The notes: generated from the sequence alone by a model not told the origin. Shown: positions 38,417 through 60,532, counted from the first letter of the stretch. The stretch: DNA of 64,000 nt from Chloroflexota bacterium (GCA_964291655.2 OZ219802.1:1088001-1152000); one strand, 5' to 3'. A program made the numbers and translations.

Positions 38417-39007
38417 CTAATCATCGTCGAGCATCTCCGCGAGCAGCGTTTCCATGGTGGTGATTGGCAAGGGTCCGATGAACTTGGCAGCGATCTCACC
38501 GTCCGGCGTAATGAAGAAGGTTTCGGGAATGCCGGAGACCCCGTATTCGATAGCGATCTTGCCGTTTGGATCTGGCCCACTGGGGTAGGTCTGCCCGAAT
38601 ACCTTGCGGAACTCGGCCGCAGCCTCCTCTGAGTCCCACAGGTTTATGCCGAGAATGACAACGCCGCGGTCTTGATAGCGCACATGCGTTTCCTGCAAAG
38701 TTAGCGCTTCGGCACGACACGGCGCACACCAGGAGGCCCAAAAGTTGATGATCACAGGCTGCCCTCGATAGTCGCTCAGCCGCACCTCACGGCCATCGCT
38801 GAGCGTGAGGGTAAAGTCCGGCGCCGGCCGGTTGTCCTGGCAAAGAAGGGTCGGCTCCAGGTTGATGCCGGGCGAGAAGCCGGCCAGTTGCCCGCTCTGG
38901 GAAAGGACATAGAAGAGGAGCGCCAGCAGTCCCGTAACCATCGCGACAAAGAGCGGTATGAGGATGTACCGCAGCGGAATGCTCCGCGGCGGCGCTGCTG
39001 AGCTCAC
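38417..39007 (-). CDS. TlpA/ResA-like membrane-anchored thiol-disulfide oxidoreductase
   Basis: N-terminal TM, APDFTL, NFWASWCAPC, GIPETFFI; GTG overlaps upstream TGA. Confidence 0.92.
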   Translation of the reverse strand: MSSAAPPRSIPLRYILIPLFVAMVTGLLALLFYVLSQSGQLAGFSPGINLEPTLLCQDNRPAPDFTLTLSDGREVRLSDYRGQPVIINFWASWCAPCRAEALTLQETHVRYQDRGVVILGINLWDSEEAAAEFRKVFGQTYPSGPDPNGKIAIEYGVSGIPETFFITPDGEIAAKFIGPLPITTMETLLAEMLDDD

Positions 39008-39807
39008 TGCACGATCTCCCAGATGTGCTCGATCAGGTACACCAGATCGTCGCCGCGAAAGACGGCAGTTCGCCCGTCCAGTCGCTCCTGGCGTGGAGAA
39101 CCAAAGACGCTCTGGTCCCAAATCTGCGTGTTTGTGACGGTAACCTGAATCTCGAATGGTGGCTGCAGCGACCACACCGGCGGCGGAGAAGCGGCGGTGA
39201 GCACGCCATGCGCCACCTCGCCAAGCTCCTCCCGCACCTCAGCAGGAGTGCGCAGCTTGGCGGCCTGAAATCCAAAGCCCCACTTCGTGGTGCACGTCCG
39301 CACACCCGGCAGCAGGCCCTCCGCCTCGGCGCAGGCGTGATTGTCGCCGCTCACCAACACCACAGGCACGTCCTGTGCGCCGCAGAGCGCGGCGTGGAGG
39401 CCGATCGTGCCCAGGTCCTGCCCATTGACCAGCACACGTGAAATACTCGGCGTGAGCGTCTGACACAGCACCGCGCCCCACGTGCCGGCTTTGGCGGGGT
39501 GGCCCAGCAGCATAGCGGCATCGGCATTAGCAAGCTCGCCGAATCGCACCTCTTGGTGTTCGCCAAAAACGTAGCTTGCGCCAAGATGCAAGAGGTCTTC
39601 GTGAAACGGTACGAGACCCGTGGCATCGTGCACGACGATCTCCTGCGCACCGGCGTTCTGAGCTCCCGCAACGGCTGCTGAAATCTCGCGGGCCATCAAC
39701 CCGCGCGCTTCTTCATAGAGGAATGCGGCCTCACTGTGCGGGTCTACCTGGTGACGATGCACAACGCCAGCGGTACCGGCGAATAGTGCGATGATGACAA
39801 CTTTCAT
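39004..39807 (-). CDS. M55 / DppA D-aminopeptidase-like protein with degenerate active site
   Basis: EEARGLMAREISAAVAGA..AGA.EI, VPVVLVSGD, TKWG scaffold; metal ligands not conserved. Confidence 0.75.
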   Translation of the reverse strand: MKVVIIALFAGTAGVVHRHQVDPHSEAAFLYEEARGLMAREISAAVAGAQNAGAQEIVVHDATGLVPFHEDLLHLGASYVFGEHQEVRFGELANADAAMLLGHPAKAGTWGAVLCQTLTPSISRVLVNGQDLGTIGLHAALCGAQDVPVVLVSGDNHACAEAEGLLPGVRTCTTKWGFGFQAAKLRTPAEVREELGEVAHGVLTAASPPPVWSLQPPFEIQVTVTNTQIWDQSVFGSPRQERLDGRTAVFRGDDLVYLIEHIWEIVQ

Positions 39808-40005
39808 GAAAGAGTCTCTTGTCGGAAACGCTGCAGTGATGCCTGTTTGCGGTCATGCGCTACCCGGCGCGGTAGCAAACTGCGGTACCGCGTGAAGATA
39901 GATTCCGCGCCCCCGCGCGGGGGCGAGCTTTCGCGGGAACCACCATCTCCCTATGTAAGCCACACGAGGAAATGAATGTGGCGACTGGCTTCCTGATGTC
40001 ATTCC

Positions 40006-40261
40006 TGTAAGTGTTGAGTAAATCGTTGACAGATTCCGCTTTCCATTCTGAGGAGTTGACGGTGCATGTCATTCCGAGCGCAGCGAGGAATCTAGAGCCA
40101 ATGTCGAACATGGTCCATACGGCACAGTACTCTAGATTCCGCGAACAGGGTTCGACACTCCGCTGCGCTTCGTTCGGAAAGACATGTGTACTTGTCATGT
40201 CTAGCACTGCGGAAGGTTGCTTTTGTTCTCAAATCTGTCAACGAATTACCTGACATCTACA
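40006..40261. mobile_element. MITE, TGTAAGTGT family, copy 1
   Basis: TIRs TGTAAGTGTTGAGTAAATCGTTGACAGA / TCTGTCAACGAATTACCTGACATCTACA; 5-bp TSD ATTCC. Confidence 0.85.
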
Positions 40262-40441
40262 ATTCCGGCGCAGGACGGAATCCAAGGTGTGGGCGGCGAG
40301 GATAGAGTCCGCGCCCCCGCGCGGGGGAGAGCTTTCGCGGGAATGACGGAGTCCCTCGTGCTGTTTTCATGGAAACGACGGTTGAGCAGCGTAGTGGCGG
40401 CAGCATGGTCAAGCAGCCAAGCAGTCTGCGTGATCGGCAGA

Positions 40442-41611
40442 CTACATCGTCGGCCCAATTCGGTGGGGAGCAAACTCACGATGACCCAGGATTTCCGTTG
40501 CAGTTAGCAGGCCGTTGACGGTATCGAGCGTAAGGTCGAACAACTGCTCGCCCAGCTCGCGGATGCTGGCCGTGCCTTCCAGCACCGGCACACCGGAGAA
40601 GTCGATGTTGTCCTGCATCTTCTCCACAGTCTGCGGATTAGCACACACCTTAATTACCGGCGCTACCGGGTTGCCGAGTGGCGAACCGCGACCGGTGGTA
40701 AAGATGCAGACCTGCGCGCCGCCGGCCACCATGCCGGTAACCGATTCCGAGTCGTAGCCCGGGGTATCCATCACCACCAGGCCCTTTTTGCTGGGGTAGT
40801 CGGCATAGCCGATCACCTCTTCCAGGACGGTCGTGCCGCCCTTGTAGATGCAGCCCAGCGACTTTTCTTCAATAGTCGTTAGACCGCCCTGAATGTTGCC
40901 CGGTGCGGGGTTAGCGCCCCGAATCGACACACCCATCTTCAGCGCGTCCTCTTCGGCCTTGCGTACCACCCCGATGAGTTGCTCGCCAATCTCCGGCTCG
41001 CGCGCCCGCTGGGCAAAGATGTGCTCCGCGCCGATGAATTCCGCAGCTTCGCTAATCATCACCGTGCCGCCGGCTTCCACCAGCATATCGGAGACTACAC
41101 CGGTAATGGGATTGCTGGACAACCCGCTGGTAGTGTCGGATCCGCCGCACTCGGTTGCCAAGACGAGCTCAGAGAGGGGGAATTCTTCCCGCTGCATCGT
41201 GGAGAGCTTGGCGGACAGCTTCTGCGCCATTTGCGCGCCTCCCTGGATAGTCTTGATGGAGCCGCCGGCCTCTTGTATCACGATGAGCTCCACCGGCTTG
41301 CCGGTCTTGGCGATGCCTTCGGCAATGAGAGGCGCTTCTGCTGTCTCGCAGCCCAGCCCAACCACGATGACAGCCCCGACGTTTGGATTGCTGCCGGTGC
41401 CAACCATGGTTTGCACAAAGAGGTCCGCATCAGCCCCCAATTGACCGCATCCGTATTGGTGAATTGTCGTCACCGCTCCGGGCACGAGCTCTGTGATGCG
41501 CTGGCCCACGGTAGACGAACAAATCACTGATGGCAGAATTGCCAGGTGGTTGCGAATTCCTACGCGACCGTCCGGCCTGCGGTAGCCCTGAAATGTCTCT
41601 GCACGTGCCAC
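40442..41611 (-). CDS. UxaA/GarD/SuyB-family dehydratase large subunit
   Basis: GYRRPDGRVGIRN, H.YGC, GLGCE, ECGGSD, GGLTTIEEKSLG, FTTGRG. Confidence 0.92.
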   Translation of the reverse strand: MARAETFQGYRRPDGRVGIRNHLAILPSVICSSTVGQRITELVPGAVTTIHQYGCGQLGADADLFVQTMVGTGSNPNVGAVIVVGLGCETAEAPLIAEGIAKTGKPVELIVIQEAGGSIKTIQGGAQMAQKLSAKLSTMQREEFPLSELVLATECGGSDTTSGLSSNPITGVVSDMLVEAGGTVMISEAAEFIGAEHIFAQRAREPEIGEQLIGVVRKAEEDALKMGVSIRGANPAPGNIQGGLTTIEEKSLGCIYKGGTTVLEEVIGYADYPSKKGLVVMDTPGYDSESVTGMVAGGAQVCIFTTGRGSPLGNPVAPVIKVCANPQTVEKMQDNIDFSGVPVLEGTASIRELGEQLFDLTLDTVNGLLTATEILGHREFAPHRIGPTM

Positions 41612-41704
41612 GGTGTTCACCCCCTTCCGGACTCTCTTGATGCTACTACCGACCAATCTAGCGTTGCATTCCTTCGTATTGTACTCTTCTCGTCAAAACA
41701 GTGT

Positions 41705-42200
41705 TGCCACTCCGCTAGGAGACCATTGCGTAACCCCACTTTCAAGCAGGGGCACTCCCTCTCCTTGGGAGGACTCTGTGTAACTCCGTCATTCCGGCGA
41801 AAGCCGGAATCCAGAGTTTATTTACAACTAAAGATAGCATGATGTTAAGTCGTTTCACCCCCATCCAAACCTTTCCCACAAAAGTGAAGGGTTATGCAAA
41901 GGTCGCTCTGGGTAGAGGGACCCGGGTGAGGGCATTTCAGCTTAACCCGTCCTTTTATCTACAAGACCGACACGCAAGAGCACAATGACGGCAAAGAAGC
42001 TCCCCGAATGCGGGAATTTCCCCCTCACCCTAACCCTCTCCCGGCGGAGAACTTTGCAAAACTCCGGCCGGAGGCGCAAGAAATACCCCCTCTCCTTGGG
42101 GAGAGGGGACAATCTCCCTTCCACATGGGTTTTGCAATGGTCTCCAGAGGGAGAGGGGACTTTCCCGCACCGGCAAGAGTTACGCAAAGGTCTCACTAGG
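41705..42200. repeat. nested hairpin repeat / GAGACC-ended MITE mosaic
   Basis: ends at 41719, 41906, 42047, 42144 and 42194; 41719-41770 nearly identical to 27049-27100; contains a GTCATTCC repeat at 41788. Confidence 0.75.
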
Positions 42201-42394
42201 GTGAAGTCGGCCGGATACGACGTTCGCGCCCAGTCTGAGCATGCGACGAGAAAGACTACGACATGGTTCGCTCTGCCGAGCGCTGCAAGTTGCACTCTCC
42301 CTTATGCCAAAGTGTTGAAGTTTAGGCGATACTGCACGGCTGAACCGCATTTCAGCAAAAATCTCGCGCGCATCCTGCAAACTTTGCGGGTAAT

Positions 42395-42438
42395 TTGACA
42401 TTAACGAGCATGTAGCATACAGTGAATCCCTGTGCTAC
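42395..42438 (+). promoter_or_regulatory. sigma70 promoter overlapped by a degenerate CIRCE-like inverted repeat
   Basis: TTGACA-N17-TACAGT; GTAGCATAC-N9-CTGTGCTAC at 42412-42438; second TTGACA-N17-CATAAC at 42452-42480. Confidence 0.6.
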
Positions 42439-42548
42439 TGCACAATTTTGCTTGACACGATGAATGAGCAATTCCATAACACAGAATCTGCAAGCACGAA
42501 TCGCCAAGTAGCTACGACTCTCGCCGATTGAATGAGGAGACGATATAC

Positions 42549-44171
42549 ATGCCCAAGATCGTAATCTTTAGCGAAGATGCGCGTAACGCCATGATGAGCG
42601 GTGTTGAGCAAGTCGCCGACACGGTTCAAGCCACTCTAGGCCCCAAGGGGCGCAACGTGGCGCTGAGCTACAAGGAAAAGCTCCCTATCGTTACGCACGA
42701 CGGTGTCACCGTTGCCAAGGAAATTGAGCTGGTCGACAACTTCGAGAATATGGGCGCTCAGCTCATGATACAGGCCGCGAGCAAGACCAACGACGTTGCC
42801 GGTGACGGCACGACTACCGCCACCGTGCTTGCCCACACGCTCATAACTGAAGGACATCGCCACATCGTCGCGGGCGCCAATCCCATGATTCTGAAGCGCG
42901 GTCTGGAGAAGGCCGCTCGGTCAGTGGTCGAGGAGTTGAGAAAGTCTTCCACGCCGGTAAGCGGCAAGGACCAGGTTACCGAAGTTGCCACTATTTCGGC
43001 TGGCGATGCCGGCATCGGTGAACTCATCGGCGAAGTGATGGACAGAGTGGGTAGAGACGGCCTTATCACCGTGGAAGAGGGACAGAGTCTTGGCATTTCA
43101 GTCGAATACGCGGAAGGGATGGAATTCGATCAGGGCCTTCTCTCTCCGTACTTCATTACCGACTCCCTCAATATGCATGCCGTAATCGAAGAGCCATACA
43201 TCTTCATTACCGACCAGAAAATCGACTCACTGGAAGAGATCTTGCCGCTCTTGGAGCGCATGGTGCAACGCGGCGAGAAAAATCTGGCCATCATTGCCTT
43301 GGAAGTAGATTCCCATGCCCTGGCAATGCTCATCACCAATAAATCACGCGGTGTTTTGAATTGTATCGCGGTGAAGGTGCCTGGGTTCGGCGACCGGCGC
43401 AAGGAAACGCTGCGAGATATTGCTATCGTCACCGGCGGCCAGTTAATTTCTGAAGAGGCCGGGAAACGCATCGAGGAAGTGGAGATTGAAGATCTTGGCC
43501 GCGCGCGCCGGATTGTCGCAGATAAAGACACCACTGCCATTATCGAGGGGCATGGAGACGTCGACGAGATTGCCGCGCGTGTGAACCAGATCAAGTCGCG
43601 ATTGCAGGATGGCGCCCCTGAATTCGATCGTGAAAAGCTGGAGGAGCGCGTAGCCAAACTCTCCGGCGGCGTAGCAGTCATTCACGTGGGCGCAGCCACC
43701 GAGATTGAGTTGAAGGAGAGGAAAGACCGCATTGACGATGCCCTTTCTGCCACGCGCGCCGCAGTCGAGGAGGGCATTGTGCCTGGCGGCGGGATTGCCC
43801 TCATTAACGCGGCGTCCGGCCTGGATCGCCTGCGGTTGAAAGGCGATGAAGCGGTGGCGATACCGGTAATGCGCAAGGCCCTGGGAGCGCCGCTCAAGCG
43901 CATCGCCCACAACGCCGGACTGGATGATGCGGTTATTGCCCAAGACGTGCAGCGCTTGGCGAAGAACCGGCGCAACAAGAACACGGGCTATAACGTGCTG
44001 ACCGGTGAGTACGTGGACATGATAAAGGCGGGGATTATCGACCCCCTCAAAGTGGCGCGCTCAGCAGTCGAAAATGCGACCTCGGTCGCATCTATGGTGC
44101 TCACTACTGAGGCGCTGGTCGCCGACGTGCCGAAGGAAGATGTCGAAGTTGAGGGAACGCCTGAGTTTTAG
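42549..44171 (+). CDS. groL: chaperonin GroEL, no adjacent groES
   Basis: TLGPKGRNV, DGVTVAKEI, AGDGTTTATVLA, PGFGDRRK, AAVEEGIVPGGG, GIIDP. Confidence 0.97.
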   Translation: MPKIVIFSEDARNAMMSGVEQVADTVQATLGPKGRNVALSYKEKLPIVTHDGVTVAKEIELVDNFENMGAQLMIQAASKTNDVAGDGTTTATVLAHTLITEGHRHIVAGANPMILKRGLEKAARSVVEELRKSSTPVSGKDQVTEVATISAGDAGIGELIGEVMDRVGRDGLITVEEGQSLGISVEYAEGMEFDQGLLSPYFITDSLNMHAVIEEPYIFITDQKIDSLEEILPLLERMVQRGEKNLAIIALEVDSHALAMLITNKSRGVLNCIAVKVPGFGDRRKETLRDIAIVTGGQLISEEAGKRIEEVEIEDLGRARRIVADKDTTAIIEGHGDVDEIAARVNQIKSRLQDGAPEFDREKLEERVAKLSGGVAVIHVGAATEIELKERKDRIDDALSATRAAVEEGIVPGGGIALINAASGLDRLRLKGDEAVAIPVMRKALGAPLKRIAHNAGLDDAVIAQDVQRLAKNRRNKNTGYNVLTGEYVDMIKAGIIDPLKVARSAVENATSVASMVLTTEALVADVPKEDVEVEGTPEF

Positions 44172-44198
44172 TGACAGCCCCGCACAATGAATGCTATG

Positions 44199-44228
44199 GC
44201 CCCTCCAGCGCGGAGGGGCCTGCGTTTT
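44199..44228 (+). terminator. putative intrinsic terminator
   Basis: GGCCCCTCC-AGCGC-GGAGGGGCC followed by TGCGTTTT. Confidence 0.6.
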
Positions 44229-44494
44229 CCCCACCCCATCCCCGAACGCTCGCTCGCCGACAGTGTGCCTCCCGCGCGCGTGAGACACGCTCGTGTTCGC
44301 ACACGAATGCGGCCCTGCATAGCGCCTGCGCCGGCTATTGATACCTTTCCCAAGATCGTCTTCCCTAATCGGTACTTGGCGTAGATTCAGAGGATGACGG
44401 CCCTAAAGACAACTAGATTCAGAACGTGTTTGGCAAGAACTGATGATACTATGTAATTAAGGACCGAATGTGCCGCTACAAAGGAGTAGAACTC

Positions 44495-45109
44495 ATGAAT
44501 AGGCGGGCATTGCTGATTGCAATTGGCTTGATCGTCGTCGTGGTTGGTGGCGCGGGGGCTTGGTGGCTCGGGTCGCCCTTGTTCATCAACACGGTTGTCG
44601 AAGAGGAACTCCCATTCGAGATCCCGACCGCCGCAGAAATGGATGAGATGTCGGAGGACGAGCGTGAGAAGGTAGCCGCAGACGTAATGGATGCGGCGGC
44701 CAAAATGCCGGATAAAGAGATGGAAGAAGATATGCCGGAGATGGCGAATGACGCCCAACCGGTGGTGGTTGCGGAGGGCCAGTTCCAAGATGCCGACGAA
44801 TTTCATAAAGGTACCGGCACTGTGACGCTCTACCGCTTGGCGGACGGCACGCACCTGCTGCGGTTCGAGGACTTCCGCGTGACCAACGGCCCGCAACTGC
44901 ATGTATTGCTGGCAAACCATGCCGACCCTGTCAATCGTGCCGACCTTGAGGAAGGATACATCGATCTGGGTGGGCTCAAAGGGAACGTAGGCAGCCAAAA
45001 CTACGAGATTGCGGCTGACATTGCCATCGACCCCATCAACAGCATCGTAATCTATTGCAAGCCCTTCCATGTGGTCTTTTCCACGGCTGCGCTTAGCAGC
45101 GGAAGCTAA
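44495..45109 (+). CDS. DM13 domain protein
   Basis: N-terminal TM, SPLF....VEE, H.G.G, LRFEDF.VTNGP.L.V.L, LG.LKGN.G.QNY, IYC.PF..F..A.L. Confidence 0.9.
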   Translation: MNRRALLIAIGLIVVVVGGAGAWWLGSPLFINTVVEEELPFEIPTAAEMDEMSEDEREKVAADVMDAAAKMPDKEMEEDMPEMANDAQPVVVAEGQFQDADEFHKGTGTVTLYRLADGTHLLRFEDFRVTNGPQLHVLLANHADPVNRADLEEGYIDLGGLKGNVGSQNYEIAADIAIDPINSIVIYCKPFHVVFSTAALSSGS

Positions 45110-45206
45110 CATCGGGGCGCACGAACTAGCCGTACCGGACGCAGCGAGGAACCTTGAGCGAATGCACGAGGTTCCTCGCTGCTCTGCATTTAAGACAAGA
45201 GACAAA

Positions 45207-45520
45207 ACGTAGCGCGGGGGCTTGTCCCCCGCCCGCATGGCGTGCCGGCAAAGCAGAGTCGATAGTTTCCCTCTCCGTTTCCAGCGCGGGGCAAACTGCT
45301 CGAAAGGGTGGCAGACTGCCCTTTGGTCTGGTGTGACGGCAATGCAGTCCCGTGGTCCTCTGGCCCTGATCAGACGCAGGTTGCAAACCTGCGCTACTGG
45401 AGAGGAAGGGCATATAGAGACGTAGCGCGGGGGCTTGCCCTCCGCCCGCATGGCGTGCCGGCAAATGAGAGTCGATAGTTTCCCTGTCCATTTCCAGCGC
45501 GGGGGCTTGTCCTCCGCTAG
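45207..45520 (+). repeat. two ~85-bp direct repeats built on GTAG REP, plus an inverted GTAGCGCAGGTTTGCAACCTGCG
   Basis: 45207-45290 nearly identical to 45419-45503; related inverted unit at 51941-52002. Confidence 0.85.
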
Positions 45521-45787
45521 GGGCAGCACGCAGGGCGTAATGAGGAGATGGGATGGCGCTTGCGCGGGAACGGTAAGTGACAAGCGCTTCGCCGACAGAA
45601 ATAGAAAATGCAACAGAGAGATGCCACGACCGCATGACGGCTAACTTACACAGGAGGTAGCTCTGTAGAGTAGGCGTGACAGCTCAAGTAGCGATAACGA
45701 ACGTGGCGGGCGGCACATGAAACGTCACTCCGGCGAAAGCCGGAGTCCAGGGTTGAGACAAAGATTGATTCCGTCTTTTGCCGGAAT

Positions 45788-45919
45788 CGTAGGTGTCTGG
45801 TATTTCATTGAGAGCTTTGGCAGAGGAAACATGGGATCTAAACCCTGTGCTTGCCTGCCTGCATGTCAACACTGCAAATTGGGGAGAGGATTCTGTCAAC
45901 GAATCACTCAACACCCACA
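45788..45919. mobile_element. MITE, TGTAAGTGT family, copy 3 (short)
   Basis: CGTAGGTGTCTGGTATTTCATTGAGAG...TCTGTCAACGAATCACTCAACACCCACA; TSD GGAAT (ATTCC on minus strand). Confidence 0.75.
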
Positions 45920-46047
45920 GGAATAGCGGGACGGGTTGCGGGAATTTCTCACTGCAAGGTGATCGGCTAACCTAATCGATCAGGCAAGTCGCAGGCTGCA
46001 AACATATCCTGAGTCTTGCCGAAGGGCCTGTGCTACCGGAGGAAAGC

Positions 46048-46078
46048 AAAACGAGCGCCGACGGTCGGCGCTCGTTTC
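46048..46078. terminator. bidirectional intrinsic terminator
   Basis: AAAACGAGCGCCGAC-G-GTCGGCGCTCGTTTC downstream of ctaA. Confidence 0.75.
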
Positions 46079-46103
46079 GTACGTGATGCCGGTTTTCACA
46101 TGT

Positions 46104-47039
46104 TTATGCCGGGTCGGGTGCAGCCGATTCAGTGTGCGACGCGACCGGGGCGGCGATTTCTTGCGTCTGCTCGGCTTCGCGGGTAAGCGGCCAGAAGAAG
46201 AGCGCCGTTCCCGCAGCCATGATCAAGGAGGCGGTGAAGACGTGGGCGACGCGCAGCGCCGTAGGCAAGCCCATGAGCACCTGCGTGAAGCCAAGTGTGA
46301 TCTGCAACGCCAGGAGTGCGATCACGAGAATTCCCAGGTATTTCGCACTGGTCTGGTCCACGCGCAAACGCCAGCCCGCCAGCAGCGCGAGGGCAATCGC
46401 GAAGACGTAGGAAGCATACCTGTGGCCCATGTGTACTTCCTCGAGGACACGGCTTGAGCCGCCCCCGCCATCGCAGCTCAGCACGCCGTGGCAAGCAATT
46501 CCGGCTCCCATGCCGACGACCAATGCGCCGGAGACCACGACGAGCAGGCCGGCCATCAGGGCGGCAATACCCCGCCATTTCGGCATTCCATCTATACTCA
46601 GCGCACGATTCTGCACATGTACCGCGCCCATTACAGTCGCGGCGATAAAGAGCATGGATATCGTGAGATGGGAACCCACGAGCAGAGCCGGTAGTTCTGT
46701 GAGTACCGTCACTGCGCCAAGCACAATCTGCACAACGAGTAAGAGTGAAAAAGCAAGCACGATGGGTCGTATCTGGCGCAGGCTGCCTTGACCGAACCAC
46801 GCCTTAATCAACACCCAGACGACGCCAACGGTCAAGAACAACGCCAGGAAGCGATGCACAAACTCAATGACTGCTGCCGTTTCGAAAGGCGGAATCACTT
46901 GACCTGAACAGAGCGGCCAATCGGGACACCCCAGTCCCGAGCCCGTTGCCCGTACCACCGCTCCCCATAGAATGTGAATGAGGGCCAGTGCGACGACACT
47001 CCACATTACCCGCTTCACCCACGTTTCGGGGTGTTTCAT
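46104..47039 (-). CDS. ctaA: heme A synthase (COX15/CtaA)
   Basis: GAVVRATGSGLGCPDWPLC, IEFVHR, QIVLGAVTV, conserved His residues, about 8 TMs. Confidence 0.93.
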   Translation of the reverse strand: MKHPETWVKRVMWSVVALALIHILWGAVVRATGSGLGCPDWPLCSGQVIPPFETAAVIEFVHRFLALFLTVGVVWVLIKAWFGQGSLRQIRPIVLAFSLLLVVQIVLGAVTVLTELPALLVGSHLTISMLFIAATVMGAVHVQNRALSIDGMPKWRGIAALMAGLLVVVSGALVVGMGAGIACHGVLSCDGGGGSSRVLEEVHMGHRYASYVFAIALALLAGWRLRVDQTSAKYLGILVIALLALQITLGFTQVLMGLPTALRVAHVFTASLIMAAGTALFFWPLTREAEQTQEIAAPVASHTESAAPDPA

Positions 47040-47299
47040 CGCATTACTCACGCTTTCCTCCTCTTGTGTACGATCCTGCTTAAAGTGTAGCACTAATCCT
47101 GCTTTGATGACACTATTTCACGGAAAGATCGAGTTGCCAGGGGGGTGCATCCGTGTCATTATCATGGGCAAAGCAGTTGCCGCCCTAGAATCGGCTTGAA
47201 GTCGCCTACTCCCACATAGATTGCAGTCTCGGAGCGTAGGCAGTCCGGCAAAATGGGCATAGCAGCGGGTAGATTACGTTATTCAGCAAGGAGGCATCC

Positions 47300-48322
47300 A
47301 TGTCGGGAAAAGTCAAAATTGTTGCCCTCGAATCGGCACACCCCCACATACACAGCTTGATCAGGCAGGCGCAAGAGCAAGAAGGCGCCGAGTTTGTCGG
47401 CTTTGCCGATCCCAATCCCAAACGCCGCGCTCTCACCAAGGAGCGCAACGAGTTTGACGACGACATGGTCTTTGCCGACTATGAACAACTTCTCGACGAG
47501 CGCCAGCCGGATGGTGCGCTCATTTGTTCCACCAATGCCGATCACGTCAAATACGTGGAGGCGCTGGCGCAGCGCGGCATTCACATCATGTTGGAGAAAC
47601 CGTTTGCCGCGAGCCTCTCGGATGCCGACCGCATGATCGCCGCGTGCGAACAGCATGGTGTGACGCTAATGATCAACTTTCCCACGGCGTGGGGTCCGGC
47701 CTTGCGGCGGGCGCGCGAGATTGCGCAGTCCGGTGCGTTGGGGCAGGTCTTTCAGATCGCGTTTCGGGGCGGACACATGGGACCCACCGGCGACTTTGAC
47801 ACGTGGTGGTACCGCCCGCAGGACGGCGGCGGCGTGTTGCTGGACTACTGCTGCTATGCGGCCAATGTCTTTACATGGATTCTCGGCAAACAGCCCCGCC
47901 AGGTCTGCGGCATGGCCGATACCCTGGTGAAGCCGGTAAGGTCCGAAGACAATGCCGTACTGCTGCTGCGTTACGACGACGCGCTCTGCGTCAGCCAGGC
48001 CACCTGGACCCGCTTCGGACCCGAGCCGATCCACGGGCCGGTCATTAACGGCACCGAAGGCAGCGTGACCATGGTTGGCAGAGAGCAACTCAAGCACTGC
48101 ACGCAGGAGAACCCCGAAGGCGACATCATTGACGTGCCGCCGCTGTCGGAACCGCACATGCAGAACGGACCTGCGTACTTCGTCCACGCGCTGCTGAACG
48201 GCACCGCCATCGAAACGCCGTGCGACCCCGCATTCAACCGGGACGGACAGGAAATCCTGGAAGCGGGCAAGATCGCGGTGCAGACCGGTGTGACCGTGAA
48301 TCTGCCCATACTGCCGGCCTAG
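47300..48322 (+). CDS. Gfo/Idh/MocA family oxidoreductase
   Basis: HIMLEKP, GGGVLLDYCCY, EDNA, GTEG. Confidence 0.92.
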   Translation: MSGKVKIVALESAHPHIHSLIRQAQEQEGAEFVGFADPNPKRRALTKERNEFDDDMVFADYEQLLDERQPDGALICSTNADHVKYVEALAQRGIHIMLEKPFAASLSDADRMIAACEQHGVTLMINFPTAWGPALRRAREIAQSGALGQVFQIAFRGGHMGPTGDFDTWWYRPQDGGGVLLDYCCYAANVFTWILGKQPRQVCGMADTLVKPVRSEDNAVLLLRYDDALCVSQATWTRFGPEPIHGPVINGTEGSVTMVGREQLKHCTQENPEGDIIDVPPLSEPHMQNGPAYFVHALLNGTAIETPCDPAFNRDGQEILEAGKIAVQTGVTVNLPILPA

Positions 48323-48354
48323 GCTGAACATCCTAGCAACTCAGTTGGACGATG

Positions 48355-48382
48355 GAGAGGGAATGCGACGCATTCCCTCTCT
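48355..48382. terminator. hairpin after Gfo/Idh/MocA gene
   Basis: GAGAGGGAATGC-GAC-GCATTCCCTCTC. Confidence 0.55.
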
Positions 48383-48573
48383 CGGTATGGATGGGAGTTT
48401 GCAATGGCGCGCCGCGCGAACACATCCGTTTGGCCATTGAGTTCTGAGAATGGGTGCAATTGACCGGGATTTCTCATACTAGAGCGCCAGACCAGTTCGA
48501 ATTAGCCATGAGACTAGATTCAGTGTGGAGGCACGGGCAAGATTACATTAGACCTGCAATTCGTTCAGGCTGC

Positions 48574-48636
48574 GCGCAGCAGGATTCACGTAGCAGGATT
48601 CGCGTAGCAGGGCTCGCGCAGCAGGATTCGCTCAGC
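48574..48636 (+). repeat. 14-bp tandem repeat, about 4.5 copies
   Basis: GCGCAGCAGGATTC / ACGTAGCAGGATTC / GCGTAGCAGGGCTC / GCGCAGCAGGATTC / GCTCAGC. Confidence 0.85.
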
Positions 48637-48685
48637 CCTCAACACGAACGGTACCAGAGGAGTACATGCTAGTCTGCTACAGGTC

Positions 48686-48716
48686 TTGACCATCGAATAT
48701 ACCCCCCAGTAGTATA
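48686..48716 (+). promoter_or_regulatory. copA promoter with CsoR/RcnR-type operator
   Basis: TTGACC-N18-TAGTAT overlapped by TATAC-C-tract-AGTAGTATA. Confidence 0.65.
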
Positions 48717-48848
48717 AAGATAGTGATGTAGTTGGTGCGCGCCGCTGGAGGCTTGTGCATAGAGTGGCGCCAACAAGCGGCAATTGACTGGGCCAGGTTC
48801 TTTCTGCCGGCTCCGCTGCCAGGTTCTCAATTCCAAGAAAGTTGATCC

Positions 48849-51326
48849 ATGGCAATTGCTGAACATACTAAGCGAAAAGAGTCTCTTGCGCTGGCCGTAG
48901 AGGGCATGACGTGCGCGGCCTGCGTATGGCGCATCGAAGAAGCCATCACGCGCCTGCCCGGCGTGCATGAAGCGGCCGTTAACTTGGCGACGGAACGCGC
49001 GCAAGTGTCATACGACCCGGACGCAGTGACACCCGCCGCCGTCGCGCAGGCCGTGACAGCAGCGGGCTATACTCCTGCCGTCGTCAAGCGTACGTTGCGC
49101 GTGCCCGGCATGCAGGACGGCTCGGCGGTCAGCCGCGTTGAAGCGGCGCTCCACGCTGTGCCGGGAGTCCTGACTGCGAACGTCAATCTGGCGGCAGAGC
49201 AAATTCTCGTCTCTCATCTTCCCGACGTAACTGAAGTGAACGCGCTCAAAGTAGCGGCCGCTGCTGCCGGTTATACGTTGGAAGACGAAGAACAAGATCC
49301 GGCTGCGGACCAAGAGGTAGCCGCGCCTGCGGCGAGGAGTGCGGCGCAACGCGACTTGCGTGTCCAATTGGGCGTCTCTCTGGCGCTTTCTCTCGTGATC
49401 CTGCTTGGCAGCATGGGAGGCCAATTCCTGCCCTTTGTGCGCGGCTCCATAATTGAAAACCCCTTCCTGCTGTGGGCATTGGCGACTCCTGTGCAGTTCT
49501 GGGCGGGTTGGCGCTTCTACCGGGGCGCGTGGGCAACGCTGAGGCATTTTGCCTTCGATATGAATGTGCTCATCGCCATCGGAACGAGCGCAGCCTACTT
49601 CTTCAGTGTGGCGACTGCGCTGGCGCCGGAGTTCTTTGCCGGCCAGGCTGTAAGCGGCGAAGCCCCGCGCTATTTCGATACGGCTGCGGTCATTATCACC
49701 CTGATTCTGCTGGGGCGTTTCCTGGAGACACGCGCAAAGCGCCAGACCGCGACTGCTATCCACGCCTTGATGGACTTCCAACCGCAGATTGCGTTGGTCG
49801 TACGTGACGGCACACCCGAAGAAATTCCGCTGGCTCAGGTAGCCGTGGGCGATGTCATGCAAGTGCGACCTGGAGATCGCGTGCCGGTGGACGGCGTTGT
49901 GATTGAAGGGCAGAGCGCAGTCGATGAGTCGATGCTCACGGGCGAGAGCATGCCGGTAGAAAAAGGCCCCGGCGCTGAAGTCGTGGGCGGTTCGCTGAAT
50001 ACGACCGGAGCTTTCACCTTCCGCGCCTCGCGAGTAGGCAAAGACACCGCGCTCGCGCATATCGTGCGCTTGATTGAAGAGGCCCAGGGATCTAAAGCGC
50101 CGCTCCAACGACTAACGGACCGCATAGCCGCTCACTTTGTGCCCGTCGTAATCGGTGTTGCCCTGCTCACGTTTCTCGTTTGGTTTCTCGTTGGACCCGA
50201 GCCGACGTTTACGCCTGCGCTGCTGGCCTTTGTGGCGGTCCTCATCATAGCCTGTCCCTGCGCGCTGGGCCTGGCGACACCTACGGCTGTGATGGTTGCC
50301 ATGGGCGCGGGCGCCGCCAAGGGCGTGCTCGTGCGCGATGCGGAGGCGCTGGAACGCTTACACAGTGTGACCACGGTAGTCCTGGACAAGACGGGCACGC
50401 TGACCCAAGGTACTCCGGAAGTTACGAATACAATCGCAACGGGCATATCCGAATCCGAGTTGCTCCGTCTCGCCGCTGCGTCGGAACAGTCCAGCGAGCA
50501 TCCCTTGAGCCAAGCGGTGGTGCGGGCAGCGCAGGCCAGAGGCCTGGCAATCCCTCCCGCCATGGGCTTCATCGCAGCGCCGGGACGGGGTATCCGCGCA
50601 GAGGTAGCAGGCAAGCTCGTTCGGGTCGGCAATCAAGCCTACATGGCAGAGAGCGGGGTGGACCAACAATCGCTCGCCGCGCTCGAAGCGCAGGTGCAAG
50701 CATTCAACGACGTTGGCAAGACCGTGCTCTTGGTGGCTCTCGATGGCGCGGTGGTAGGCACGATCGCGGTAGCCGACGCGCTCAAGCCAAGCGCCCAGGC
50801 AATGGTCCAAACGCTGCGCGCCCGGGGACTGGCGATAGTGATGCTCACGGGTGACGCGATGCGTACTGCTCACGCCATTGCCGCTCAGCTCGGCATTGAA
50901 AGCGTGTTGGCAGAGGTTATGCCCGGGCAGAAAGCGGCGGTCATTCAGAAGCGGCAAGAAGCTAATGAGGTCGTCGCCATGGTGGGAGACGGCATAAACG
51001 ATGCTCCTGGGCTCGCCCAGGCCGACGTGGGCATTGCGCTGGGGGCCGGCGCCGACGTGGCGCTGGAAGCCGCGGACATTACCCTCAAGGGCGAGAACCT
51101 CGGCGCCCTGGAGACCGCCTTCACGCTCTCCCGAGCTACGCGCCGCACCATTTGGCAAAACCTGGGCTGGGCGTTTGGCTACAACGTGGTGCTCATCCCG
51201 GTGGCGGCAGGCGTTTTATATCCTCTATTCGGGATCGTCCTTAGCCCCATGCTCGCAGCAGGGGCGATGGCGCTTTCATCGGTCTCAGTGGTGACAAACT
51301 CCCTGCGTTTGCGGAGCATCGTATGA
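48849..51326 (+). CDS. copA: Cu(I)-transporting P1B-type ATPase
   Basis: [36 protein letters not shown] and MALSS TM motifs. Confidence 0.96.
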
Positions 51327-51403
51327 GGACCTTCTTGGGGTAAAGGGGGAGGAAGGCAGAGTTGCAATCAGCCTTTTTGGAAGCGTCCGAGGAGCGTCAT
51401 TCC

Positions 51404-51671
51404 TGTAAGTGTCAGATAATTCGTTGGCAGATTCAAGTACAAAAGCAACCTTCCGCAGTGTTAGACATGACTAGTAAACATGTCATTCCGAACGAAGCGC
51501 AGCGAAGAGTCGCTCTTAGCGCGGAATCTAATGTGCTGAAGCCGCTATAGTGCGTTGAGCAGGAACCCTAGATTCCGCGAACATCGTTCGACGCTTCGCT
51601 CGGAATGACAAGGCCTTGTAGCGCTTTCTACGGGGAAGCGAATTCTGTCAACGAATTACTCAACACTTACG
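51404..51671. mobile_element. MITE, TGTAAGTGT family, copy 2 (inverted relative to copy 1)
   Basis: TGTAAGTGTCAGATAATTCGTTGGCAGA...TCTGTCAACGAATTACTCAACACTTACG; TSD ATTCC; interior is similar to the reverse complement of 40006-40261. Confidence 0.85.
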
Positions 51672-51838
51672 ATTCCGAGCCCAGCGTCGAACTCTGTTCG
51701 CGAAAAACTCGGCCTCTAACAGAGCACTCAAATTGCGGTCAACTGCTTACGCGTTAGGCAGCGGGGGGAAAAGTCAACATGCAGTCGCACAAACCACTGC
51801 GGCGAGGAAGACGAGACTCTCGATCCGCCCACATCCTC

Positions 51839-52002
51839 GGTAGCGCAGGTTTGCAACCTGCGTCTGCTGCAGTGAAGACCTCTATGTGCCCTATTCTCTC
51901 GTGTGACAATGTTGGAAAATACGCCCTATGCTGCTTACTCCGGCGGCAAGCCCCCTTGCTGGTTTAACGCGACAGCACTTGAACGCAAGTCCCCGCGCTA
52001 CG
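51839..52002. repeat. GTAG-type REP-like repeats
   Basis: GTAGCGCAGGTTTGCAACCTGCG and inverted CAAGTCCCCGCGCTAC. Confidence 0.7.
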
Positions 52003-52213
52003 GCAAGTGCAAGAGTCTCGTGGGCAGCACCGGCAGACCTGCAAGAGTCGATCAATTTGGAGACACGGTCACTGCGACATCCAATGGGGAAACTGCGTAG
52101 AATGGACGTAGCATACAGAGGCTTACGCCTTGCCACTGGCCGGACGGCAGGAGCAAGTCCACTCTCATGAAGACACCGGCCACGATCGAATAGACGCTGT
52201 AAGGAGCGCCACA

Positions 52214-52360
52214 ATGGCAAAATGCGCAACCTGTAATGAATCAGTAGACACAGCTACTACCGAGACCAAGGTAGAGTACCGGGGCACGGTCTACTACTTC
52301 TGCTGCGGCCACTGCCAGGCCGCCTTCGAGCAGGAGCCGGAGCGGTACGTCGAGGCCTAG
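52214..52360 (+). CDS. YHS/TRASH domain metal-binding protein (48 aa)
   Basis: AAGGAG RBS; CATC...EYRGTVYYFCCGHC...FEQEPERY. Confidence 0.85.
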   Translation: MAKCATCNESVDTATTETKVEYRGTVYYFCCGHCQAAFEQEPERYVEA

Positions 52361-52562
52361 CCGGAGCAGTGGAGCGGAAAGGCCCCACCGCTGCCTCTCC
52401 TTTTCACACGCGTGAGATGTGGTGGTCTTCGCGCACGATCTTTACAGTGATACTCGCGTAATGTCTAGATTCTTAGCTGTTTCTTAGGCAGCATTGCAAT
52501 GACCTCCGATTCCTTGCTATATGAGGGATCCACGGCGTGTCTTGCCTTCAATATGCCGTTTC

Positions 52563-52594
52563 AAGTCCTGCCCAAGCGGCAGGACTTAGTCTTT
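52563..52594. terminator. hairpin, terminator-like
   Basis: AAGTCCTGCC-CAAGC-GGCAGGACTT then AGTCTTTT. Confidence 0.45.
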
Positions 52595-52787
52595 TAATGC
52601 TTGACATACTGCATCTCTGTGCAACCATGGATTCAATACCCGGCGCCTGGATGGGAGTCAATTGAAGGTTGCTGATGGCGTCGTTGAACTAAGGCGTCGT
52701 TTGGCGTTCGTGTCGTCAGGCAGGAGTGCCATCACAAACGACCGTCCACCCTTCTAGCGCTGCACTTTGGGGGAAAGGAGCAGAGCA

Positions 52788-54137
52788 ATGCTTACGCGTC
52801 GTTCATTACTGGGAAGTACAGCCGTGCTCGGAGGCGCGGCGGCGCTCGCCACCGGCTGCAGTTCGCTGGGGATCCCACTTTCGCCGCCCAGCACGCCGCA
52901 GGGCAACGTGATCAAAGTGGCAGCGTCTCCGCGGTCTATATACCTCGTCTTGCCGTACGGAAACTACACTGATGACGACGAAGCCGAAGTCCGGTTCGAA
53001 CGGGCCCGCATGGCGCTCGAAGAGGACGAGACAAACGCGTATGGACCTAAGCGCGGCGGCTACTCGCTTGACCTGCGGCTTGTCAACGATTTCTACCCGC
53101 CGTACGTTGAACCCAAGACCGAGGAAGAGACAGAAGCGTTCATAGCGGCCAGGCTCGAATCGGTTGCGACCGTGCTCGACGATCTCGACGCCGACCTGGT
53201 GACCGTCTGGCCGGAGGAGGCACGGCACTGGGGCGAGAATGGACTCTTACTGCCCTTGGACCGTTTCAGCGGCGCGGGGGAATCTGAGCTCAATCAAGAG
53301 TTTTTCCCTACCGTGGTCAGTCAATTCCGGCGCGACGGCGCGCTCTACGCGCTGCCCGTAGACGCCATGCCGCAGATGCTCTTCTACGACGAGGGGTTCC
53401 TCAATCGGCAAGGCGTGCCGCCGCCCGACAGTAACTGGAGTTGGGACGATCTGGCGAGAAGTGCCGCTACCCTCACGTCATCAAAGCAAGACGGCACGGT
53501 CTCGCGGTGGGGCCTGATTGCACACGGTCACGGTATTTCGTGGGCGTTGTGGCAGAACAAAGCGAATATCGTCAACTCGGACACGGCGCAGTGCCGTTTA
53601 CAGGAACCGGCGGCAGTGGCAGCACTGCAGTTCGTGCACGACCTGTTGCACAAGCACCGCGTTTCCCCACTGGCGGAGATGCGGGACCTATGGGACTACC
53701 ACTGGAGAACACCACCAGCTATGTTCTATGATTTTCCTCCCATTGTTCACAATCAAAGAAATGACTTTCGCATGGCGGCGTTGCCCCGGGGCAAGGTGTC
53801 CGCCACACCGGTACGCACCAGGCTTGGCATCGGCATTGCCGCCCGGACGCAAAGGACAGAAGCGGCATTCATGGCGCTAAAGGGATTCAACCGCGCCATG
53901 CAAGCGCACGTGGCGATACCCGCCGGTAGAGAGGCCGTCGCGCGCCTGGCAGACCTCCGCCCGGACATCAGCCCGGAGGAAGTCACCGCCGTGCAGCACT
54001 CCCTGGAGCACGGTCGCGAATGGCCGCAACACGGGCTGCCATTGACCATCTTGTACGAACTCGCCCAAGGCCTCGGCCGCGGCGAAGACGTGCCTACCAT
54101 CGTTAATCAGGCCTGCAGTATCGCGCACGAGTACTGA
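52788..54137 (+). CDS. family 1 extracellular solute-binding lipoprotein (Tat signal)
   Basis: TRRSLL twin-Arg, LATGC lipobox, LLPLD, DGALYALP, LFYD, WSWDDL. Confidence 0.85.
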   Translation: MLTRRSLLGSTAVLGGAAALATGCSSLGIPLSPPSTPQGNVIKVAASPRSIYLVLPYGNYTDDDEAEVRFERARMALEEDETNAYGPKRGGYSLDLRLVNDFYPPYVEPKTEEETEAFIAARLESVATVLDDLDADLVTVWPEEARHWGENGLLLPLDRFSGAGESELNQEFFPTVVSQFRRDGALYALPVDAMPQMLFYDEGFLNRQGVPPPDSNWSWDDLARSAATLTSSKQDGTVSRWGLIAHGHGISWALWQNKANIVNSDTAQCRLQEPAAVAALQFVHDLLHKHRVSPLAEMRDLWDYHWRTPPAMFYDFPPIVHNQRNDFRMAALPRGKVSATPVRTRLGIGIAARTQRTEAAFMALKGFNRAMQAHVAIPAGREAVARLADLRPDISPEEVTAVQHSLEHGREWPQHGLPLTILYELAQGLGRGEDVPTIVNQACSIAHEY

Positions 54138-60309: not shown

Positions 60310-60480
60310 CAGCGCAGACTTGCAACCTGCGCCTTCTTCCGTCATTCCGGCGAACGCCGGAATCCAGTTCTCCGCGAAACGGCCTCAGTGTCTCGGAAAG
60401 CATTCAATCGGTAGAGCTCTTGGATCGGATAGTGCACTGACTTGACCATTCCTGTCATTCCGAGCGCAGCGAGGAATCTA
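60310..60480. repeat. REP-like repeats (GCAGCGCAGACTTGCAACCTGCGC and two GTCATTCC types)
   Basis: uninterrupted GTCATTCC copies at 60341-60366 and 60454-60479. Confidence 0.8.
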
Positions 60481-60532
60481 GAGTGCTTTGCAAAAGAGAT
60501 TGAATACCGAGATTCTCAAACTTCCCAATCAC

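Follow-up and report, generated by a model that had tools for sequence, protein, structure and literature searches.

MITEs probably derived from a single-gene insertion sequence occupy the foot of a CGTC-tagged hairpin repeat in Chloroflexota

We analysed a 64,000-nucleotide stretch (the window) from the 3.47-Mb, two-contig (C1, C2) genome of a Chloroflexota bacterium (GCA_964291655.2, OZ219802.1:1088001-1152000), in which three short elements interrupt copies of a hairpin repeat. With a probability that we put at about 0.9, these are miniature inverted-repeat transposable elements (MITEs), deletion derivatives of a 1060-bp insertion sequence (IS) whose single gene encodes a DDE transposase, of the IS481 family by best profile match, and they insert at the foot of the repeat, GTC|ATTCC. 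The anatomy of the elements, their target duplication, the target word, the parent element and the conservation of the target throughout a clade of transposases were observed directly. An original prediction, made by a model from the window's sequence, had proposed a MITE family that targets the conserved foot of this repeat and spreads its own target; we found target-specific insertion at that foot in the window's genome, in the parent elements and in the wider clade.

Three elements at the foot of a repeat

Copy 1 (40006-40261, minus strand, 256 bp) is bounded by TGTAAG...CTACA, with direct repeats of ATTCC outside. Its target foot, GTC plus the left ATTCC, lies at 39998-40005 on the plus strand and the right ATTCC at 40262-40266. 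Both of its ends resemble those of the parent described below: the transposase-distal type (40006-40035) adjoins the GTC foot and the transposase-proximal type occupies 40232-40261. Copy 2 (45788-45919, plus strand, 132 bp) has a degenerate left end that starts with CGT and is flanked by GGAAT at 45783-45787 and 45920-45924. Copy 3 (51404-51671, plus strand, 268 bp) has ATTCC on both sides, with the foot (GTC plus the left ATTCC) at 51396-51403 on the plus strand and the right ATTCC at 51672-51676; its right end reads ACG instead of ACA. In copy 3 the transposase-proximal type of end adjoins the foot, so that its orientation is opposite to that of copies 1 and 2. The borders, the terminal inverted repeats (TIRs) of ~28 bp and the 5-bp ATTCC duplications of all three elements agree with the prediction, as does the outcome of joining the flanks without the element, which restores members of the repeat family: GTCATTCCGGCGCAGGACGGAATCCA for copy 1, GCTATTCC on the minus strand for copy 2 and GTCATTCCGAGCCCAGCG for copy 3. 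Inverted ends extend over 30 nt in copy 1 (80% complementarity) and over 27 nt in copy 3 (81%), and the 16-nt core of the MITE ends occurs five times in the window (0.35 expected; none of 100 shuffles reached 5).

Both long copies contain the inverted pair of target-type repeats that had been claimed for them. That of copy 1 spans 40068-40188, with GTCATTCCGAGCGCAGCGAGGAATC on the plus strand at 40068 and a decayed partner at ~40137-40188 on the minus strand that ends GGAAAGAC; that of copy 3 spans 51482-51609, with feet at 51482 (plus) and 51609 (minus). Copy 2 lacks the pair and is an internal deletion, its positions 1-81 and 77-132 matching both arms of full copies. Copy 1 folds into a long hairpin (-55.1 kcal/mol, z = -6.0). 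Its closest paralogue (C2:1496209) is 94% identical, and that of copy 3 in its own genome 85.6%. One end in each of copies 2 and 3 starts with CGT in place of TGT, a terminal base that should disable an element moved by a DDE transposase; this mutation fits with immobility of the two copies. No Rfam family matched anywhere in 39000-53000 (E up to 0.1).

For one of the three window copies there is direct before-and-after evidence. In this region the closest sister genome, G008, shows 94-97% identity; collinearity extends to the base before copy 3 and picks up directly behind the element, where 4 bases overlap. Its site, ...GTCTTTCC|GAGCGCAGCGTCGAAC... (also given as ...GAGGAGCGTCTTTCC|GAGCGCAGCGTCGAAC...), is empty and holds a single 5-mer. 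The search for empty orthologous sites, which had been suggested, succeeded for copy 3 only: copy 1 is filled in G008 too, the region around copy 2 is replaced there, and no empty sites for these two copies were found, more distant genomes failing to align across the intergenic stretches.

The MITE family across the genome

Searching the whole genome for the two types of MITE end, with up to 6 mismatches, returned 135 ends. The outer 5-mer is ATTCC or GGAAT at 94 of them and the outer 8-mer is GTCATTCC at 44, in line with the uniform flanks that had been predicted. Pairing yielded 52 copies of 200-326 bp and left 31 ends unpaired. A perfect 5-bp duplication surrounds 30 of the 52 copies, and in 28 of these GTC lies outside the duplication on exactly one side (GGC and GTT in the other two). 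The duplicated words are ATTCC (25 copies), ATTCT (2), ATTAC, ATTGC and GTCCA (1 each). Because the variant words are duplicated faithfully, ATTCC is a target duplication and not element sequence; this had also been claimed, and the empty site of copy 3 agrees. The 5-mers around the MITEs are direct repeats rather than inverted ones.

The insertions appear to be independent events, as proposed, with unrelated outer flanks and at least five hairpin subtypes hit. Both orientations occur: among 46 copies with two different ends, the foot adjoins one end in 18, the other in 15 and both in 2, and is unrecognisable in 11. The word GTCATTCC is found 479 times in the genome, against ~95 expected from base composition and a median of 91 for 300 permuted 8-mers, and a MITE end follows directly after 45 of the 479. 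Taken with copy 2, the family has the usual properties of MITEs, being 132-326 bp long, non-coding and present in many copies, with the ends of a parent element and a target duplication. Its copies here have a median nearest-neighbour identity of 89.9% (maximum 97.2%), and none are identical.

The target repeat

Judged by its sequence, the target appears to be the published CGTC-tagged repetitive extragenic palindrome (REP), also called dRS3, NTS or Ssn-related motif. CGTC-tagged REPs, among them the dRS3 of Neisseria, are described as having no transposase dedicated to them (PMC3733652; this and the other papers are cited from excerpts). The NTS or Ssn-related motif has the consensus CGTCATTCCCGCGMAVGCGGGAATCYRG. 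Its single-stranded form is cleaved by SsnA, a small GIY-YIG nuclease encoded by a gene that the repeats typically flank, and the three bases upstream of the palindrome matter most for this cleavage (PMC11893778). Empty repeats lie where the prediction had placed them, all on the plus strand, at 41788-41814 (GTCATTCCGGCGAAAGCCGGAATCCAG; CGTC-tagged REP or NTS-like), 60341-60367 (GTCATTCCGGCGAACGCCGGAATCCAG) and 60454-60481 (GTCATTCCGAGCGCAGCGAGGAATCTAG), and we found a further one, of a long-loop subtype, at 40310-40347 on the minus strand (GTCATTCCCGCGAAAGCTCTCCCCCGCGCGGGGGCGCGGACTC). The tag is CGTC at 41788 and 60341 and TGTC at 60454, the stem begins with AT, the tail is CCA or CYRG, and dimers occur. 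A tag outside the palindrome, an AT stem and a short tail characterize both CGTCATTCCGGCGAAAGCCGGAATCCAG at 41788 and CGTCATTCCCGCGCAGGCGGGAATCCAT at C2:1344349, the latter differing at one position from the published 28-nt NTS consensus. Since GTC|ATTCC is the foot of this hairpin, the repeat family is the probable landing site: the element enters directly after GTC, ahead of the first base of the stem, and duplicates the first five stem bases.

The genome also has three small putative Ssn-like GIY-YIG frames of ~95 aa, at C2:1711914-1712132, C2:1259810-1260028 and C1:823705-823920. All three have a GTCATTCC foot upstream and two also an inverted foot (GGAATGAC) downstream, a layout that resembles the published, repeat-flanked one of ssnA (PMC11893778). 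These frames had no match in NCBIfam and a single one in PDB (1zg2, E = 4e-4). A possible likeness of the target to the inner stretch of the element end (GAAT...GAC) was dropped, as it required a 5-nt gap.

The parent insertion sequence

The prediction called for long copies with an open reading frame between the TIRs; these are missing from this genome and present in sister genomes. Here, the only ends that lie far apart (C2:942901 to 945691) have an unrelated IS1182-like element between them, in a nest of fragments. We searched for the core of the MITE ends in 16 genomes of the same genus and 24 genomes of other families in the class. All 16 genus genomes contain it (5 to 123 matches each) together with the MITE family, and the 24 others gave one single-mismatch match. 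A 3.1-kb interval between two ends in G009 was rejected as an element, its contents being ordinary host genes. In G006, two end pairs 1021 bp apart bound a 1061-bp element. This parent is 1060-1061 bp long and has one gene without programmed frameshift, a single 333-codon frame that runs into the right end, where its stop codon is located; its start is probably the ATG at codon 11, because database relatives are mostly 323 aa long. We found 33 intact copies (15 in G001, 11 in G006, 5 in G003 and one each in G008 and G015), and in G010 the gene is broken by stop codons. All 33 carry the ends of the MITE (TGTAAG...CTTACA), and parent and MITE share only the terminal 31-38 bp of each end. Mutual identity of the parent copies is 99.5-100% in G006, 100% in G003 and 97.6-100% in G001.

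The parent uses the same target as the MITEs. A perfect 5-bp duplication flanks 26 of the 33 copies, GTC adjoins it in all 26, and the duplicated words are ATTCC (22), ATTCT (2), ATAAT (1) and CTTCT (1). Orientation at the foot is divided 12 to 14, with 7 copies unclassified.

The transposase contains the Pfam domains rve, rve_3 and rve_2. Among NCBIfam profiles, IS481 (NF033577) matches best (E = 8e-61, 206 bits), followed at a distance by IS3 (E = 6e-23, 81.7 bits) and IS21 (57.1 bits), and short DNA-level matches of the parent fall in genes annotated as IS481-family transposases. The candidate catalytic residues D167, D234 and E276 are invariant in a four-sequence alignment that includes the transposase of ISa, a resident IS481 element. 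Of the transposase families that the prediction had considered, IS481 was retained, being the best profile match of the transposase recovered from sister genomes; a Tn7-like, Mu-like or IS21 identity is excluded, since the parent has one gene in 1.06 kb, versus TnsABC, MuAB and IstAB. No record in the plasmid collection covers at least 80% of the parent element. With no parent copy found in the assembly, the MITEs of the window's genome are orphans.

Conservation of the target in a wider clade

The transposase search, which sampled one genome per species, identified relatives outside the genus, at 67-80% protein identity, in metagenome-derived genomes of Chloroflexota, Dehalococcoidia, Nitrospirales and Nitrospinota. 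At 42 of 48 copies from these relatives we found a perfect 5-bp duplication, adjoined by GTC in every case (42/42). The duplicated words are again mostly ATTCC (29), with ATTCT (4), GTTCC (4), ATCCC (3), GTTGG (1) and ATTCA (1). Six copies have no clean duplication; among them are pairs that have exchanged flanks, as recombination between copies predicts. Target choice is a property of the clade. In the databases, 2873 proteins match the transposase at E <= 1e-30, under generic names only ('integrase core domain-containing protein', 'transposase InsO family protein').

Swapped flanks were also seen at the full-length copies L035 and L036 (G006:C1:3326177-3327975 and 2468196-2469994) and L029, which have a poly-C or poly-G run plus the foot on one side and the wrong half-site on the other. 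These suggest inversions via recombination between copies.

Self-seeding and nesting

The claim that the element spreads its own target was upheld, and nested insertions exist. Exactly two feet (at most one mismatch) lie inside 48 of the 52 MITE copies, and 94 of the 479 exact genomic feet, one fifth, fall within the 52 MITEs. Each long MITE brings two further feet with it, so that the number of landing sites grows with every insertion and nesting builds up. Eight same-strand end pairs are 40-85 bp apart, the signature of insertion into another copy's internal repeat, and 7 of the 15 full-length parents in G001 lie between MITE ends on both sides, 4 more having them on one side. The MITEs show one route by which CGTC-type repeats multiply, and offer an explanation for the nested mobile DNA that builds up in repeat-rich intergenic regions of these Chloroflexota genomes.

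What reads the target, and alternative explanations

The sites show that parent and MITEs enter GTC|ATTCC, in either orientation relative to the target word, by a 5-bp staggered insertion that duplicates ATTCC and leaves GTC just outside. A MITE retains the terminal 31-38 bp of each parental end, with the inverted pair of CGTC-tagged hairpin repeats between them. We infer the chemistry of transposition, and also that recognition of the 8-bp word, as double-stranded DNA, is the work of the transposase itself. Some of the sites used have no visible palindrome partner (GTC|GTCCA for a MITE, GTC|ATAAT and GGTC|ATTCC-TATC for parents), and the reverse complement of the duplication lies within 32 nt at 14 of 28 clean MITE sites, a share much like that of genomic GTCATTCC words (260 of 479). 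Since sites without a partner are used and the share with one is that of the genomic background, reading of the duplex by the transposase is favoured. The same observations, and the use of both orientations relative to an oriented repeat, make it unlikely that targeting works through a hairpin or single-stranded form of the repeat or through a host protein bound to it, for which a small GIY-YIG (Ssn-like) nuclease would be the candidate. Such guidance does draw some support from the GTC that is invariant at the insertion sites, these being the bases most important for SsnA cleavage (PMC11893778), and from the three small GIY-YIG frames flanked by GTCATTCC and GGAATGAC in this genome.

There are two further explanations. 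The MITEs could have been moved not by the absent parent but by ISa and ISb, IS481-family elements resident in this genome (28 rve matches): theirs are the only rve transposases of the genome, and they make short duplications and have TGTA...TACA ends. This we consider very improbable, since those ends (TGTATAGACC...) have only TGTA in common with the MITE ends, ISa and ISb land in a different repeat, their transposases are ~30-32% identical to that of the parent, and the MITEs are old, as their nearest-neighbour identities indicate, versus many ISb copies that are 98-100% alike. There is next to no chance that ATTCC belongs to the element, or that all copies stem from one duplicated filled repeat with no site-specific insertion. 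Very uniform flanks could by themselves hint at a longer element; against this stand the direct rather than inverted 5-mers, the duplicated variants, the empty orthologue with its single 5-mer, the unrelated outer flanks and several repeat subtypes used, and the same pattern at 68 clean full-length insertions (26 in sister and 42 in more distant genomes).

Several points weigh against derivation of the MITEs from this parent by insertion at the repeat foot. A perfect duplication is lacking in 22 of the 52 paired copies, and among the 46 copies whose two ends differ, 11 have a recognisable foot on neither side; such MITEs may be accounted for by decay, nesting and recombination between copies. 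The score of 206 bits for the IS481 profile is below the NCBI curated cut-off of 224. No cognate transposase was found in this assembly, where the best tblastn match (32-34% identity) came from another element, so mobility in this genome would be historical; the assembly's two contigs end in insertion-sequence copies, so a parent copy could have been missed. An informative empty orthologue exists for one of the three window sites, and it is no proof of a recent jump, because the nearest paralogue of copy 3 is just 85.6% identical.

A wider reading is offered tentatively, as one that we think less likely than not: a small IS481-like clade, present in at least three phyla, would read GTC|ATTCC alone and, via MITEs that carry the word twice, would be a main driver of the multiplication of CGTC-tagged or Ssn-related repeats. 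In a bolder form, integration would be coupled to the Ssn nuclease, for which GTC is likewise the recognition tag.

Resident elements and other features

ISa (1287 bp, 4 copies) and ISb (1265 bp, ~23 copies), with ends TGTATAGACC...TACA, lie at C2:1707063-1708349, 1035623-1036887, 557824-559088 and ~25 more loci, at fixed positions in another hairpin repeat (CCCTCACCCCGGCCCTCTCCCC..GGGAGAGGG) and with 5- or 6-bp duplications. Repeat-specific landing seems common among the IS481 elements of this genus. The IS1182-like element (C2:943065-944734 and ~25 more) is 1669 bp long with a 540-aa frame and has ~25 near-identical copies. The contig ends C2:2642381-2643963 and C1:828440-830011 lie inside such copies, and because both contigs end within one, the assembly probably breaks at this element.

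In the window, all three copies are located between ordinary genes: copy 1 has an M55 peptidase gene and an altronate dehydratase gene on either side, copy 2 lies downstream of a GroEL gene and adjoins a CtaA gene, and copy 3 comes after a P-type ATPase gene. A frame of 408 codons at 44387-45613 has no Pfam match and is probably no gene. Within a repeat-rich stretch, 85 nt are directly repeated with 93% identity (45207-45291 and 45420-45504), and five 14-nt tandem units (CAGGATTCGCGTAG-like) are found at 48566-48636, between oxidoreductase and P-type ATPase genes. A perfect 27-nt inverted match, CAGACGCAGGTTGCAAACCTGCGCTAC, at 45371-45397 and 51840-51866 is itself partly palindromic and probably represents another repeat family.

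Comparison with known systems

Elements of the IS481 family usually measure ~1-1.3 kb, and IS481 itself prefers the target NCTAGN. The parent resembles the family (e.g. IS481 of Bordetella) in its single DDE (rve) gene, its length of ~1 kb, its TGT...ACA ends, here the inverted TGTAAG...CTTACA, and its short duplication. It differs from the family in duplicating 5 bp, versus 6 bp in most members (the family's range is given as 2-15 bp; PMC10045372), in a shorter transposase (323-333 aa) without the C-terminal extension of the resident IS481 elements, in a profile score below the curated cut-off, and in its target, GTC|ATTCC within a hairpin repeat.

Insertion sequences that target REPs include IS1397 and ISKpn1 of the IS3 family and IS621, ISPpu9, ISPpu10 and ISPa11 of the IS110 family, which occupy a fixed position within an abundant extragenic palindrome, as here; the excerpted 2006 survey lists the families IS3, IS110, IS4, IS256 and IS5 and does not mention IS481 (PMC1525189). 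Their targets are mostly GTAG-type REPs, whereas those described here are CGTC-tagged and are also carried by a MITE. In papers on CGTC-tagged REPs, dRS3 and NTS, the repeat figures as the substrate of a nuclease or as one without a dedicated transposase; their excerpts report no IS481-type element or MITE landing in CGTC-REP or NTS, and neither mentions IS481 (PMC11893778, PMC3733652). Filamentous prophages of Neisseria use the same class of repeat as a landing site, at dRS3 (PMC11893778, PMC1525189), but they are another type of element, with an IS110/Piv-like DEDD enzyme in contrast to the DDE (rve) enzyme here. Our literature search, which covered few subscription journals and leaves absence unproven, turned up no publication describing REP, dRS3 or NTS as the target of an IS481-type element or MITE.

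The MITEs are like other bacterial MITEs in their small size, lack of coding sequence, parental IS ends, target duplication and high copy number; what sets them apart is their cargo, two copies of their own landing site, hence the nested insertions. A REP-like repeat targeted by an insertion sequence whose best profile match is IS481, together with an orphan MITE that carries the target, is a variation on known kinds, and known transposition classes are unchanged by it. Here a minimal DDE transposase, encoded by the element's one gene, keeps strictly to an 8-bp target, and does so in distant bacteria as well, which makes the system a concrete case that can be tested. It also joins three literatures: those on IS481 elements, on MITEs, and on the CGTC-REP, dRS3 or NTS repeats that Ssn nucleases cut.

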